A stretch of 64,000 bases of DNA from Klebsiella phage KpLz-2_45, in sequence record MN871446.1. One strand, written 5' to 3'. A program made the position numbers and the translations under genes. How positions within the stretch are numbered: position 1 is the first letter of the stretch; each line of letters begins with the position of its first letter. Under the pieces are notes generated by a model. The model saw only the letters and a list, made by a program, of their open reading frames with translations, did not search any database and was not told where the DNA came from. Below are positions 22,778 through 29,146 of the stretch, piece after piece.

Positions 22778-23815
22778 GTACTGACTAATAGTCAAAAGGA
22801 TCTCAGTGTTTAGCTCATAGATGACTTATCGCACATCATCCTTTTCATGTTAAGGTCGCCACCGAAACATGTTTATTCTCGGCTATACGAGTTAGCTTAA
22901 TTTCCAGATTTTTAATACCCGATCCCTTCTACGTTGGAGAAATGGATCGAATAGGGTGACGCCCCCGGACATTTTTGCCGGCTCCTTGCACCTCTTTCGC
23001 CGGAATCCCCGGCTGAGGTCTATGGTCTATGGCCGCCTATTTTCGCTCTAAGGCGTAGGCCGCCGAAATTGACAGGCGTCATAATTAGTACCCCTCGGCC
23101 GATTCCGCGGCGCGTTTAACCGGCGGGTCGCCGAAGTCTTTGTCTCACGAGAGTTACCAATAAGTTATTGCTTATTGGACAAATCATTCGGATACGATTC
23201 CGAACTCCCTTCCTACCGAGCCTCTACTACCGAGCAGGAGTCGAACCTGCACTCTCTGTAAACAATATCACTTGACTAGAGCAGTATTGTAAAGGTTACG
23301 TGGACTTTAAAAGTGTAGAATGGGTATCAGTTAATTTGTTGCGGCCGCATACCGGTAACTGACTTCTTCTACTAGCGCCACCACTGACTCCGGTGTCTCG
23401 CCTAGTGGCGTTGTGCGACCCATTAACTCGCACTCTCTCTTTTAAGTCCAACTTTGGTTGATAGGTACCGAATCGAACGGCTATCTCAGGCTCCCATGTT
23501 AAGGCGCCCCTCGTATGAGAGGGGGCCTAATGCCCGCGCTTTACCTTTAAGCTAGCCTATCATTGAATAGGTTCCCTAGCACTCAATGAGTATCATCTAC
23601 ACCAGCAGCGCCCGGTGTTTAGCCGAGATGCAATTATGCTTAAATGGGTCGTATTTAACGGCTCATTTATTCGTCGATGATTTACGTAGGGATAACAAGG
23701 AGACATCCCCCTCAGCACGCCGAGGTCAACTTTTTCCTTAGGTCAAGATTAACTCTCCGCAACATTAAGTCGCCTGGTTAACCCCTGCCTTTAGTCTAAG
23801 CAAGATGTCATTATT

Positions 23816-24077: not shown

Positions 24078-24179
24078 TGGTTGTTCCCTTCCGGATTTGA
24101 ACCGGCAACCTCCTGCTAAGCAGTGGGCGGCGCAGTGGCCGCCGATGCAGGCGCTCTACCTAGTTGAGCTACGAGAACA
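24078..24179 (-). tRNA. tRNA-like gene with a 23-30 nt GC-hairpin insertion in the anticodon arm (intron-containing tRNA or pseudogene)
   Basis: Canonical D-arm GCTC-AACTAGGTA-GAGC and T-loop TTCAAAT; anticodon stem CCTGC/GCAGG encloses 30 nt including hairpin GGCGGC-CACTGC-GCCGCC and a direct repeat CCACTGC; acceptor has one mismatch. Confidence 0.4.
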
Positions 24180-24262: not shown

Positions 24263-24340
24263 TTTGAATTTCGTTCATAAGATGATGAAATTACTTAATT
24301 TTTGATCCGCGCACCAGTATTCTCGTTAACCAACGGGGAA

Positions 24341-24796
24341 TTATATCTTTGGTTTCTTATTAGCCTTTTTACAGGCAGCTCTGTAACCGACCGTATCAAA
24401 AATACCATTGATGGAATGTTTAATGATTATACCCTGAGAAAGTCCGGTAAATAACGCGGCATCTCTAATCGTGTCATAGATCCACCCATCAATAACCCAA
24501 CAAGTTCTCCGTTTCACGTCGGCGTAATAATGAACTTCTTTACTATCATGATAATTATCACGATCCGTACCAATAGACAAATGCTCAGGATTACAGCAAC
24601 GGGTGTTATGGCAAGAATGTCTTACTACTTTACCAATTGGCACTGGCCCATAAACTGTAGTGAAGACAAATTTATGAGTTGTCCAATATTTACCGTTCCG
24701 TGTAAACTGGCCGTAACCAGCGCTATTGCAAGATTTATTCCAATTCCAGCAACCGGTTACTTTATCTACCGTTGTATTTTCTTTAATAAATTCCAT
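24341..24796 (-). CDS. HNH homing endonuclease
   Basis: GCWNWNKSCNSAGYGQF and HSCHNTRCCNPEHL motifs typical of phage HNH endonucleases; embedded between tRNA genes. Confidence 0.7.
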   Translation of the reverse strand: MEFIKENTTVDKVTGCWNWNKSCNSAGYGQFTRNGKYWTTHKFVFTTVYGPVPIGKVVRHSCHNTRCCNPEHLSIGTDRDNYHDSKEVHYYADVKRRTCWVIDGWIYDTIRDAALFTGLSQGIIIKHSINGIFDTVGYRAACKKANKKPKI

Positions 24797-24894
24797 GTGT
24801 TTATAATCTCTTTCTGTTAATTGTTTATCAACAGAGTGATATATATTTTAAGGAATTTTGGTTGCTCTATCCTGCTGAGCTAAGAGGACGTAGA

Positions 24895-25279: not shown

Positions 25280-26137
25280 TTATTTTCCCGACGCTGTACC
25301 CTGAACGCGCGCAGAGTTCTTCAGAAGAATTGTAGAGGCATCTTCAAGGAACTGGTCGCTGTCGCCTGAGGTATTCGCTACCACCAGGGTTTTAGTGCAA
25401 GGGACTTTTACTGTCGAATTGAAAAGGATGCCCGAGTCGGTTGTTGCTTTTTCGATCGTGTACACCGCTTTACCGTTCGGCAGTTTTGCATCAGCATTCC
25501 AGGAGTTGAAATCAATGATCTCGAGTCCCGAGTCTTTTTGCATGACTGCGTCCAGGAATTTATTATTCCGGTCGGGTGCAGAAACCCAAAGGAACGCGTC
25601 GTATTCGCCAGTATTCACTTTAGCCAGGGAACGGATACCGCCTTTGGCATACGTTTCAACTTTCGCGTAGTTTTTCTCCAATGTCTGGAGATACTGCCAC
25701 GAAGCGTAAGATCCAGAGGTAGGTTCGCCCACAGCGATCTTCGTACCTTCTTTTAAATCACCTTTACTGGTGACCTTACCGTCTTTCTTGACGGCGACAA
25801 AGACGCACTCGCTGGCCAATTCGCCAATGATATCAACGTTCTGTGCTTCATTGGCATGACGCGAACGCCAGAACTGATAGGCATCAGCTTGGGTAAACCC
25901 GATAGTGGCTTCTCCCGAGGCTACACGATCAAGGTTATCGAGTGAGCCTTTAGAAGGGACAACCGAGGTCTGGTAACCGTACTCACCCAGAGCACTGGCT
26001 AAGTTTACACCATAAATGGCGTTATAGGTTAAACCTTGTTGACCGGTGGTAATAACAATTTTGCCATCGGCCGCGGATACGCCAGCACTCATGCAAAGTA
26101 ACGCTACCGAAATCACGGCAAAAGCAAGTTTCTTCAT
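25280..26137 (-). CDS. periplasmic substrate-binding protein (PBP fold) with signal peptide
   Basis: MKKLAFAVISVALLCMSAGVSA signal peptide at the internal Met (tabulated ORF extends to 26227); mature domain about 260 aa with SBP-like composition. Confidence 0.5.
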   Translation of the reverse strand: MKKLAFAVISVALLCMSAGVSAADGKIVITTGQQGLTYNAIYGVNLASALGEYGYQTSVVPSKGSLDNLDRVASGEATIGFTQADAYQFWRSRHANEAQNVDIIGELASECVFVAVKKDGKVTSKGDLKEGTKIAVGEPTSGSYASWQYLQTLEKNYAKVETYAKGGIRSLAKVNTGEYDAFLWVSAPDRNNKFLDAVMQKDSGLEIIDFNSWNADAKLPNGKAVYTIEKATTDSGILFNSTVKVPCTKTLVVANTSGDSDQFLEDASTILLKNSARVQGTASGK

Positions 26138-26248
26138 TTGCATTCCCTTTAAGGAAAGTATGGGTGTCAAGCGGCATAACCGCCACAGTGAATTTGAGAG
26201 GCTGACAAGTTGGCCCAACATGTGCATTAATCATGTCACGGAATAAAG

Positions 26249-27785: not shown

Positions 27786-27826
27786 TAAAAAAGCATAGGA
27801 GAGAGGAGGGAATTCCCTCCTCTCTC
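27786..27826 (-). terminator. rho-independent terminator ending the tRNA-like cluster transcript
   Basis: GGAGAGAGGAGGG-AATT-CCCTCCTCTCTC stem followed by T6 on the minus strand. Confidence 0.6.
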
Positions 27827-27992
27827 GATTAATTCATTTATCAAAAAGTGATCTCTTTGAAAAAGAAACTTTTGTGGTAAGAAGGGCGGAGGTAAGGATA
27901 TAACCATCCCCAACACCGCCCATAGCCATTCAGCTATAAACAGAATTTAGCGCGACCTATCTAAGAATAAGATTGGAAGTTTTATTTTATAA

Positions 27993-28023
27993 TCTAGTGC
28001 TCTACCGGCTGAGCTATCTGCCT
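27993..28023 (-). other. tRNA 5' half Y (acceptor 5' strand, D-arm, anticodon-stem 5' strand), downstream member of a permuted pair
   Basis: AGGCAGA-TA-GCTC-AGCCGGTA-GAGC-A-CTAGA; followed by a degenerate vestigial 3' part (CTTAG ATAGGTC GCGC TAAATTC). Confidence 0.45.
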
Positions 28024-28050
28024 CCAAGAAACACTCTGTGAATGTGTCCA

Positions 28051-28087
28051 GGTAGGCAGAGCGGAATTCGAATCCGCGACCTCTAGA
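28051..28087 (-). other. tRNA 3' half Y (anticodon-stem 3' strand, V-loop, T-arm, acceptor 3' strand), upstream member of a permuted pair
   Basis: TCTAG-AGGTC-GCGGA-TTCGAAT-TCCGC-TCTGCCT-A-CC; acceptor 7/7 and anticodon stem 5/5 complementary to 5' half Y, which lies 27 nt downstream. Confidence 0.45.
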
Positions 28088-28210
28088 ATTCTTTCCGTAA
28101 AAGAAAGAAAGTTCAGTCCGCTATTTTACTGTTTACTCTTTATCTTTAAGCGTGTGAGGCGATAAGATAAAGTTAACACTAACCATCTGGGTCGCATTAT
28201 GGGTGCATTG

Positions 28211-28242
28211 ATGACTGCGTCTACCAATTCCGCCATTCTCCC
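28211..28242 (-). other. tRNA 5' half X (Leu-type D-arm), downstream member of a permuted pair
   Basis: GGGAGAA-TG-GCGG-AATTGGTAGA-CGC-A-GTCAT(CA); followed by a degenerate 3'-half remnant (TGCACCCAT..ATGCGACCC). Confidence 0.45.
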
Positions 28243-28248
28243 ATAGTT

Positions 28249-28287
28249 TGGTGGGAGAAGAAAGAGTCGAACTTCCAGTGGGGTCAT
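28249..28287 (-). other. tRNA 3' half X (anticodon-stem 3' strand, V-loop, T-arm, acceptor 3' strand, CCA encoded)
   Basis: (TG)ATGAC-CCCACT-GGAAG-TTCGACT-CTTTC-TTCTCCC-A-CCA; acceptor 7/7 and anticodon stem 7/7 complementary to 5' half X, 6 nt downstream. Confidence 0.45.
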
Positions 28288-28378
28288 CACACCTGCAACA
28301 CGGACTAACAATAAAGATAAGGTTGGCCTCAATCTTTATTATCAATGGGCACTCGTGAGAATACCCATTACTAACACA

Positions 28379-29146
28379 TTAAGCAGTGAAGTTTTTCAGA
28401 ATCACGTTGGTCAGTACTTCGCCGATAGAACCCTGAACAACTTCGGTGCAGTTTGCACGCATACGTGCATTAGTGACTTCAACGATCAGTTCGTCGATAT
28501 CACGCAGTGCGTTGGCTTTCTGCATCGGGGTGCAGGCGCCGGAATAACTTTTACGGGTGAAGCTACCAATTACGACGGTGCTTTCCGATTCTTTCACCTG
28601 TGCAGGGTGGTGGTCGGTAGCCGGCGCCAGGATAACCGGAGTGAGTACTTTCTCGGTTTTCGTCGTGACTTCGTCCGTCACGGTACGGAATCCGTAGGTG
28701 CTGTTGCTATCGCGTTCCCATTGTTTGGACGAATCCAGAGTAGGGGCAGCGGCGATCAGTTTGCGCAGTTCCGCCAGGCGTTTTTCCAGGCCCAGGAGTT
28801 CATCTACCGGCACTCCAGAAACGAGGACTTCGCCTTTGAACATGATGTCTGCTTTTGCGACCTGGTTAGTCAGGGCTTTTTGCAGGCGAAGGTCTTCTGC
28901 CGTGGCGAAATATTCGAAGAGGTACTGCAGCGTTTCGGCAACAGTGGTGATCACTGCCTTGCTGGTACTTTCGCTTTTTTCGATCGCGGCGTTGGCGTCG
29001 TTGTCTTCGTGCAGTTTCAGGGTTTTATCAAACCCGCTGAAATATTCAGCCGATTTATTGAATTTTTTACTGGCGTCTTCGATCAGGACTTGCACTTGTT
29101 TGGTGCGAGTGGGTTCTGCTGCCAATACTTCGTGTAACTTAGCCAT
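28379..29146 (-). CDS. hypothetical protein, codon usage typical of highly expressed genes
   Basis: 255 aa ORF with RBS AAGGAAAT; the overlapping plus-strand ORF is a G/F/R-rich antisense artifact. Confidence 0.6.
   Translation of the reverse strand: MAKLHEVLAAEPTRTKQVQVLIEDASKKFNKSAEYFSGFDKTLKLHEDNDANAAIEKSESTSKAVITTVAETLQYLFEYFATAEDLRLQKALTNQVAKADIMFKGEVLVSGVPVDELLGLEKRLAELRKLIAAAPTLDSSKQWERDSNSTYGFRTVTDEVTTKTEKVLTPVILAPATDHHPAQVKESESTVVIGSFTRKSYSGACTPMQKANALRDIDELIVEVTNARMRANCTEVVQGSIGEVLTNVILKNFTA

Follow-up and report, generated by a model that had tools for sequence, protein, structure and literature searches.

Two permuted tRNA-like units downstream of a DUF7873 gene

The 64,000-nucleotide stretch of Klebsiella phage KpLz-2_45 analyzed here (record MN871446.1, referred to as the window) includes on its minus strand two neighboring units, named X and Y, in which the 3' half of a transfer RNA (tRNA)-like structure is encoded ahead of its 5' half. 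Are these units tRNA genes whose halves have to be rejoined, the remains of duplicated tRNA genes, or RNAs of another kind? Our analysis indicates that they are probably a pair of YrlA-like tRNA-mimic RNAs, independent of Ro60, that form a conserved cassette with the gene of a DUF7873 protein. The evidence for this reading is the fold of both units, their conservation and covariation, a near-obligate location downstream of DUF7873, and searches in which neither Ro60 nor its binding motif was found. With a genome of about 300 kb, this Klebsiella phage is a jumbo phage of the FBKp24 group (Maaswegvirus), and the region is 99% identical to that of 'Serratia phage' KpYy_2_45 and 88.5% identical to those of FBKp24 and Centimanus.

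The first part of X (28289-28249, minus strand) has the sequence TGATGAC-CCCACT-GGAAG-TTCGACT-CTTTC-TTCTCCC-A-CCA and is followed by AACTAT and by a second part, GGGAGAA-TG-GCGG-AATTGGTAGA-CGC-A-GTCATCA (28242-28209). In Y, TCTAG-AGGTC-GCGGA-TTCGAAT-TCCGC-TCTGCCT-A-CC (28087-28051) is separated by a 27-nt spacer from AGGCAGA-TA-GCTC-AGCCGGTA-GAGC-A-CTAGA (28023-27993). The order of the elements is the same in both: the 5' strand of a closing stem, a short variable loop, a 5-bp T stem with a TTCGANT loop and a 7-nt acceptor 3' strand come first, and after a loop there follow a 7-nt acceptor 5' strand, U8-N9, a D arm, one nucleotide and the closing-stem 3' strand. The acceptor strands are complementary at 7 of 7 positions in both units and the closing stems at 7/7 in X and 5/5 in Y, all of which can be read directly and had been noted in an earlier, sequence-based description of the locus (the original prediction), whose coordinates are exact for Y and 2 nt short on each side at the outer ends of X.

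The permuted cloverleaf is the minimum free energy structure calculated by RNAfold for X and for Y, when each is folded alone and within the whole 481-nt intergenic fold, and the ends emerge from the equivalent of the anticodon stem, as had been proposed. The predicted X RNA spans 28191-28299 with its tRNA-like core at 28289-28209, and the extended Y RNA spans 27948-28123 and consists of an outer helix, an upstream hairpin, the core (28087-27993) and an A/U-rich 3' linker. A strict descriptor, consisting of a TTCRANN T loop, a 5-bp T stem, a 7/7 acceptor stem, a 3-4 bp D stem and a 5/5 closing stem, matched X and Y and nothing else on both strands of the window (128 kb), and had no match in 30 shuffles; a relaxed version of it produced 2 matches in 20 shuffles. 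No call was made at the X and Y site by Rfam at its gathering thresholds or by ARAGORN, a program that searches for permuted transfer-messenger RNA (tmRNA) genes as well and that had been suggested as a check of the original prediction.

Both units lie on the same strand as, and 90 nt (X) and 290 nt (Y) past the stop codon (28379) of, a gene encoding a 255-amino acid DUF7873 protein (28379-29146, minus strand; full-length match to PF25283, E 2.7e-72). The original prediction lacked this key piece of context, the presence of the DUF7873 gene immediately upstream.

Association of the modules with DUF7873 in phages and bacteria

When the first five distant DUF7873 loci were searched with the descriptor, a permuted module was found in the downstream gap of all five, with stem sequences that were entirely different. 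The sample comprised 80 loci from IMG/VR and 80 from genomes, all with a DUF7873 alignment, the latter including Actinomadura, Streptosporangium, Nocardia, Streptomyces, Nostoc, Anabaena, Calothrix, Polyangiaceae, Chloroflexota, Planctomycetota and metagenome-assembled genomes of Burkholderiales. Counts were made on the 156 distinct loci with enough downstream sequence, which represent phages, Actinomycetota, cyanobacteria, Myxococcota and others. The descriptor located modules on the same strand and at most 1.2 kb downstream of the gene in 137 of these 156 loci (one module in 88, two in 47 and three in 2), at a median distance of 200 nt. The density of modules downstream of DUF7873 was 1.02 per kb as compared to 0.0053 per kb elsewhere in the same loci, a difference of about 190-fold. 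A covariance model gave full-length matches in at least 13 of the 19 loci missed by the descriptor, so that about 150 loci carry a module. Besides the DUF7873 gene itself no conserved neighbor gene was found in the bacterial loci.

An order in which an X-type module precedes a Y-type module recurs in 47 loci, including those of Arthrobacter phage Talia1610, Streptosporangium and Nostoc. In loci with two modules the D arm of the first one combines a stem of 3 bp with a long, Leu-like loop of 10-11 nt, as in class-II tRNAs, and the second one has a GCUC/GAGC D arm; X and Y conform to this pattern. The D arm of X is of the tRNA-Leu type, with 91% identity to E. coli tRNA-Leu genes over nucleotides 5 to 27.

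The fixed location of the modules could also be understood if X and Y were cis-acting elements in the 3' untranslated region of the DUF7873 mRNA, where a cut by RNase P would define or stabilize the mRNA 3' end in the manner of MALAT1-mascRNA, an explanation that we consider unlikely. It agrees with modules that are always downstream and on the same strand at that median distance, and with the terminator scan, which called no intrinsic terminator in the leader between the stop codon and X (28288-28378). It is harder to reconcile with the existence of two distinct and separately conserved modules, X type and Y type, in a fixed order, and with a promoter that the annotators of FBKp24 predicted between the gene and X. 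The precedent of YrlA and YrlB, which are co-transcribed with rsr and nevertheless act in trans (PMC4201824), also speaks for RNAs that would function apart from the message.

Conservation and covariation

Feature counts were carried out on 178 distinct modules. U8 is kept in 172 of them, the T loops have the sequence TTCRANT, the D loops carry GG, and the acceptor loop starts with N73-CC in 112 (NCCA in about 84) and with N-CU in 45. The maintenance of U8, the TTCRANT loops and N73-CC indicates that the tertiary signatures of tRNA are retained.

Covariation was analyzed on a gapless, length-normalized alignment of 67 diverse modules, named A5, from which the window's clade was excluded; a plain MAFFT alignment (A4) put the D arm and the closing stems out of register, and A5 was for this reason used for the model. 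Double changes were observed at 20 of 20 base pairs (518 cells versus 135 ± 11 in shuffles), and when the partners were slid, pairing fell to 38-48%. The covariance model built from A5, named R1, was run unfiltered over the whole window; its best match was Y (30.2 bits, E 1.3e-7), X came next (27.8 bits, E 8e-7), and the remaining matches were partial T-arm matches in a tRNA cluster that ARAGORN locates 3 kb downstream. In a comparison with FBKp24, identity amounts to 96-98% in the noncoding DNA between the DUF7873 stop codon and the end of Y (97.9% for the Y core), as compared to 88.7% for the DUF7873 coding sequence and 61-67% for the flanking genes.

These results effectively refute the possibility that X and Y are functionless, decaying remnants of tandemly duplicated tRNA genes: conservation is 96-98% against 61-89% in the flanking genes, all four helices covary across about 150 loci of several phyla, and the halves are unlike any tRNA in the window. 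A recent origin from the phage's own tRNAs was also considered and rejected, as the best local match extends to 15 of 31 nt only. The nearby tRNA cluster, a marginal 8-mer repeat after Y, and the published caveat that tandem tRNAs can imitate the YrlA pattern (PMC4201824) would be compatible with decay. The original prediction had described a mutated, vestigial copy of the 3' half after each unit. The one after X is at chance level, with 414 of 500 shuffles scoring as high, and the one after Y amounts to a marginal shared 8-mer, AGGTCGCG (22 of 500 shuffles); this segment more plausibly represents the 3' strand of the predicted outer helix, paired with the upstream sequence AAUAGCGGACU. That the units are under selection instead of decayed is borne out by the conservation with respect to FBKp24, and the covariation analysis, a check that had been suggested with the original prediction, showed halves that are co-conserved and stems that keep compensatory pairing across the loci.

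Comparison with split tRNA genes and two-piece tmRNA

Circularly permuted tRNA genes were reportedly described in Cyanidioschyzon merolae by Soma and co-workers in 2007, and split tRNAs are said to have been found by Randau and co-workers in 2005 in Nanoarchaeum and to exist in other archaea too. Permuted and split tRNA genes give rise to decoding tRNAs by cleavage with a splicing endonuclease, which depends on a bulge-helix-bulge (BHB) motif, and ligation of a circular intermediate. X and Y resemble them in that the 3' half is encoded before the 5' half, the acceptor strands are complementary and a short spacer links the acceptor ends. The original prediction took X and Y to be genes of this kind, whose transcripts would be circularized or ligated and cut again to yield decoding tRNAs, a possibility that in our opinion is extremely unlikely in spite of the order of the halves, the perfect acceptor complementarity and a UUAUAAA sequence after the Y closing stem that could resemble an anticodon loop.

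Unlike permuted and split tRNA genes, X and Y have no BHB and no anticodon-loop signature, and the break runs on as a helix. Of the 178 modules, 55% have a closing stem of more than 5 bp (7 bp in X) and only 34% have a T where U33 would be, which argues against a reconstituted anticodon loop. RNAfold predicts extended helices at the flanks and no BHB motif in Y or in X. In X the closing helix is prolonged by GGUG/CACC and GUUGCA/UGCGAC, and the two bulges (AUG and CAUAA) are both on the 3' strand of this continuous helix, so that the proposed half of a bulge-helix-bulge does not exist; one pair of the outer helix is A-U in FBKp24, U-U in LPKP23 and U-G in the window. Bacteria and phages are not known to have the splicing endonuclease that processes BHB motifs. 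The silence of ARAGORN at the site points in the same direction, as do homologues that adjoin DUF7873 in bacterial chromosomes already endowed with full sets of tRNAs. The earlier interpretation is thus only partly supported: its permuted architecture stands and its rejoining for decoding does not.

Another RNA with a comparable arrangement is the two-piece tmRNA encoded by permuted ssrA genes in alpha- and betaproteobacteria and cyanobacteria, in which a T arm, the CCA-bearing acceptor 3' strand, an excised spacer and the acceptor 5' strand occur in the same permuted order and from which two RNA pieces result that are paired to each other and have a CCA end that can be charged. The Rfam beta_tmRNA family matches Y partially, over the tRNA-like part only, with 24.8 bits for a gathering score of 84. 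In contrast to two-piece tmRNA, X and Y have neither a tag reading frame nor pseudoknots, and ARAGORN finds no tmRNA. The MALAT1/mascRNA elements are similar in that a tRNA-like structure recognized by RNase P is located downstream of a functional RNA, but these are eukaryotic, single and in the normal tRNA order, whereas modules of the X and Y type are permuted, paired and found in bacteria and phages.

Relationship to YrlA and the Ro60-bound Y RNAs

The original prediction stated that this arrangement had not been described in phages or bacteria. YrlA RNAs have the same architecture: they were reported in 254 bacterial species and 22 phages and were defined by a tRNA-like module, a 5' GNCGAAN0-1G motif and a location at most 4 kb from a Ro60/TROVE gene (PMC4201824, Chen et al. 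2014), and they were explicitly termed circularly-permuted-tRNA-like (Wang et al. 2018, bioRxiv 10.1101/312249). The RNA fold itself is then already known from YrlA. YrlA and YrlB (RF02553; crystal structure 6CU1) share with X and Y the T arm, the closed acceptor stem-loop, the D arm, ends located in the anticodon-stem equivalent and conserved elbow nucleotides, and they are often tandem RNAs next to a protein gene on the same strand in bacteria and phages. One of them, the M. smegmatis YrlA, which has a 7-bp acceptor stem, is an RNase P substrate to which CCA is added (PMC4201824). A permissive Rfam scan matched Y to YrlA with 37.6 bits (E 1.5e-6 for an 801-nt stretch; gathering score 69), in an alignment that covers the T arm, acceptor hairpin, D arm and inner stem only and leaves the outer Ro60-binding stems unaligned. 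X had no YrlA match in the Rfam scans, and permissive scans of the modules of six test loci gave no family at E <= 0.001. No Rfam 15 family reached its curated gathering score on these RNAs, the sub-threshold matches being YrlA and beta_tmRNA only.

The differences are equally clear. X and Y have no detectable Ro60/TROVE gene, no GNCGAAN0-1G motif and scores below the Rfam gathering threshold; their invariant neighbor is DUF7873 and not Ro60; and their family has a full 7-bp acceptor stem, with N73-CC(A) encoded in most members. X and Y could still be classical Ro60-bound Y RNAs, YrlA and YrlB, if the Ro60 protein were provided by the host or by another part of the phage genome. The common fold, the sub-threshold YrlA match and the two tandem RNAs, as in yrlB-yrlA, would fit such a view, which we nonetheless consider very unlikely. 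The motif is absent from the minus strand between 27900 and 28380, and ahead of the modules it is no more frequent than in control windows (9 of 178 versus 6.3%). No TROVE domain was detected in the seven neighboring genes scanned, and a local search gave no Ro60 match in the window or in 169 DUF7873 loci.

A tblastn search with human Ro60 returned 358 phage records annotated as Ro-like protein, which validated the query, and one with the TROVE protein of Rhizobium phage RHph_Y65 returned 99 matches. No Klebsiella or Serratia phage appears in the organism summaries of either search, and the 11 Maaswegvirus records would not fit into the categories that these summaries leave unlisted. For the most part, DUF7873 and TROVE occur in different phages. 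RHph_Y65 is a case in which both are present, with a TROVE gene (from 12136) 5.4 kb beyond a DUF7873 cassette, and it is an argument in favor of a connection to Ro60. Its DUF7873-proximal module has a sub-threshold YrlA match of 36 bits. YrlA-like sites in this phage at 6931-7051, 11205-11319 and 11384-11458 all score 34-37 bits with the Rfam model, and the latter two precede the TROVE gene. As sites beside a TROVE gene score no higher than this, the YrlA gathering threshold is a weak discriminator.

Acceptor loops, transcription and possible function

Modules with a short acceptor loop have U at position -1 in 62%, G at +1 in 85% and CCA at 74-76 in 49%; U at -1 and G at +1 are preferences of bacterial RNase P. 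X belongs here with the loop A-CCA-AACUAU (28243-28252, minus strand), in which the encoded ACCA ends at 28249 and a cut by RNase P is predicted between U28243 and G28242. Long acceptor loops, which are frequent among phages, fold into a hairpin with C74-C75 paired to G-2/G-1, and the result is an acceptor helix that is closed and extended with N73 alone bulged. Y is of this type: its loop (28024-28053, minus strand) has a bulged A73, C74-C75 paired to G-2/G-1 and then a hairpin with the loop region AUUCACAGAG, as predicted by RNAfold, and this hairpin closes and lengthens the acceptor helix. The same N-CC-hairpin-GG design with other stem sequences is present in many phage homologues, for example those of phiRSL1, Vibrio K479 and loci L014-L018. 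The RNase P-type processing proposed originally is a reasonable expectation for X; Y, with its closed and extended acceptor helix, would be a poor substrate. The same distinction bears on the cis-acting alternative, as the RNase P hallmarks of the X-type loop favor it and the Y-type helices do not.

The first intrinsic terminator called downstream of DUF7873, X and Y is a strong one with a 12-bp stem and a U run (27799-27826, minus strand), and consequently the three plausibly constitute one transcription unit that would end there. X and Y would be processed out of this transcript, as yrlB and yrlA are from the rsr operon, and may act together with the DUF7873 protein, possibly as a ribonucleoprotein. 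They would mimic the 'top half and elbow' of tRNA (acceptor, T and D arms) in a circularly permuted order, with an acceptor stem that is closed by a loop and RNA ends that emerge from the anticodon-stem equivalent and continue as a helix and not as an anticodon loop. Enzymes that act on tRNA may recognize both RNAs. The 7-bp acceptor stem, U-1, G+1 and A73-CCA of X suggest that RNase P could cut in the acceptor loop and that trimming to CCA could leave a two-piece tRNA-like molecule with a free CCA end, and Y would retain its closed, extended helix. Possible roles include, for instance, tRNA or RNA surveillance and a decoy function during infection, the latter of which had been raised in the original prediction.

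A bolder proposal, which we put forward tentatively and with considerably less confidence than the existence of the cassette, is that DUF7873 and the permuted RNAs constitute a widespread and so far unrecognized Ro60-independent tRNA-mimic ribonucleoprotein, in which RNase P, together with 3' trimming or the addition of CCA, might convert the X-type RNA to a two-piece molecule without anticodon that has a free A73-CCA end and a Leu-type D arm. If so, such a molecule could be aminoacylated or could be a bait for tRNA-directed enzymes or nucleases.

Several points weigh against the interpretation of X and Y as YrlA-like partners of DUF7873. Both RNAs are known here from sequence comparison and predicted folds, and it is synteny that suggests that the DUF7873 protein may bind them. 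This protein is mildly acidic (pI about 5.5-6), and no characterized relative of its fold was found. Neither Y nor X reaches the Rfam gathering score for YrlA. CCA is not universal, as 25% of the modules have N-CU, and the pairing of C74-C75 with G-2/G-1 in Y and many phage homologues should disfavor RNase P. The 99.8% pairing in A5 is in part a circular result, as pairing was already required by the descriptor with which the seeds were selected; for this reason the independent evidence is the DUF7873-linked enrichment, the shuffles and the diversity of pair types.

The DUF7873 protein

The DUF7873 family has about 2,280 clusters at 50% identity, nearly all of them single-domain proteins of about 250 amino acids. 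It occurs in tRNA islands of phages and in chromosomes of Actinomycetota, cyanobacteria, Myxococcota and Chloroflexota. The phage collection has homologues in phiRSL1, in Rhizobium, Vibrio, Gordonia, Arthrobacter and Rhodococcus phages and in cyanophages; where the annotation was fetched, the gene lies in an island of tRNA genes, and some 450 nt without annotation come after it. The structure predicted by AlphaFold2 is a confident one, with a predicted local distance difference test (pLDDT) score of 92.8, and there are 12-14 conserved Lys/Arg positions. The protein had no match in PHROGs, PADLOC, NCBIfam or a PDB sequence search. Its lack of an obvious RNA-binding fold or charge is a further point in favor of the cis-acting alternative discussed above.

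No mention of DUF7873 was found in the literature searched, and the searches on FBKp24 and on permuted tRNA in phages gave nothing relevant. A permuted tRNA mimic as a near-invariant companion of DUF7873 in several bacterial phyla and many large phages appears to be undescribed in the literature and databases searched. The association would give DUF7873 a first functional lead, an RNA partner, and would extend tRNA-mimic Y-like RNAs beyond the Ro60 systems. The factor that binds the tRNA-like elbow of YrlA was stated to be unknown (Wang et al. 2018, bioRxiv 10.1101/312249), and DUF7873 is a possible candidate for this proposed 'effector'. Streptomyces, Anabaena/Nostoc and Klebsiella phages are tractable hosts in which such mimics could be studied.

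Candidates other than the permuted RNAs were considered as conserved neighbors of DUF7873, namely an ABC-F ATPase, isocitrate lyase, kinases and transporters, and were rejected as lineage-specific synteny. The ABC-F-type protein, a double ABC ATPase of a class that includes ribosome-associated factors, is encoded directly ahead of DUF7873, and on its strand, in 17 of the bacterial loci (L090-L169), most of them actinobacterial, and its location may reflect lineage synteny only.

Other features of the locus

All genes near X and Y are on the minus strand, and the window coordinates that follow refer to it. The leader between the DUF7873 stop codon and X (28288-28378) folds into two hairpins according to RNAfold and is 96.7% identical to that of FBKp24. 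The spacer between X and Y, also 96.7% conserved with respect to FBKp24, includes a predicted hairpin formed by CUUUAUCUU and AAGAUAAAG (28135-28172). The outer helix of Y is formed by UAGCGGACU (28123-28114) and AGGUCGCGCUA (27958-27948) in the RNAfold prediction, and a hairpin of 7 bp with a 7-nt loop, UUCUUUC-UUUUACG-GAAAGAA (28089-28109), is just 5' of the Y core. A layout like that of Y, with an upstream hairpin, module, linker and outer helix, is also predicted by RNAfold for phiRSL1 and for two IMG/VR phages (L017 and L018). In the proteobacterial-phage clade (window 28024-28053; L007, L009, L014 and L016-L018) the apex of the Y-type acceptor-loop hairpin looks similar, AUUC-NNN-GAG, and the stem below it covaries; a motif like AUCAUCGU also seems to recur in the unpaired linker on the 3' side of the module.

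A 'tRNA-Sup-TTA' or 'tRNA-Stop(tta)' is annotated in FBKp24, Centimanus and LPKP23 at the equivalent of window 28134-28051 (L001 4568-4647, L002 4563-4646 and L003 4567-4650). It consists of the hairpin upstream of Y, read as an anticodon arm, and the 3' half of Y. ARAGORN makes no such call in the window, and the annotation is regarded as a false positive because no more than 4-5 of the 7 positions of the acceptor stem would be paired. A mis-annotation is more probable here than a suppressor tRNA, and the presence of Y accounts for its recurrence in jumbo-phage genomes. An aberrant 'tRNA-???' with a two-base anticodon (ct) is called by ARAGORN beside the module of an IMG/VR phage (L006/L058, 4640-4711, plus strand).

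In FBKp24 and LPKP23 the tRNA cluster has a tRNA-Arg(tct), a small coding sequence, a tRNA-Tyr and a tRNA-Gln between tRNA-Leu and tRNA-Gly or tRNA-Asp; the equivalent interval in the window (24263-24894) is 632 nt only and has no tRNA call from ARAGORN or Rfam. A lone T-arm-like hairpin, GCAGG-TTCGACT-CCTGC, is located in a short enclosing stem at 23216-23258 with no acceptor or D arm, and is the third-best match of R1 (21 bits). Between the tRNA cluster and the RNA cassette there is a gene (25280-26227) for a homologue of periplasmic solute-binding proteins (NMT1_3 / TAXI-TRAP-like, E 5.9e-13). A 97-nt tRNA-like sequence at 24082-24178 scores 38.9 bits with the Rfam tRNA model and is not called by ARAGORN. 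It has normal acceptor, D and T arms, does not encode CCA, and its 31-nt 'anticodon loop' includes the GC-rich hairpin GGCGGC-CACTGC-GCCGCC; this may be a phage tRNA that has an intron or is unusual in another way.

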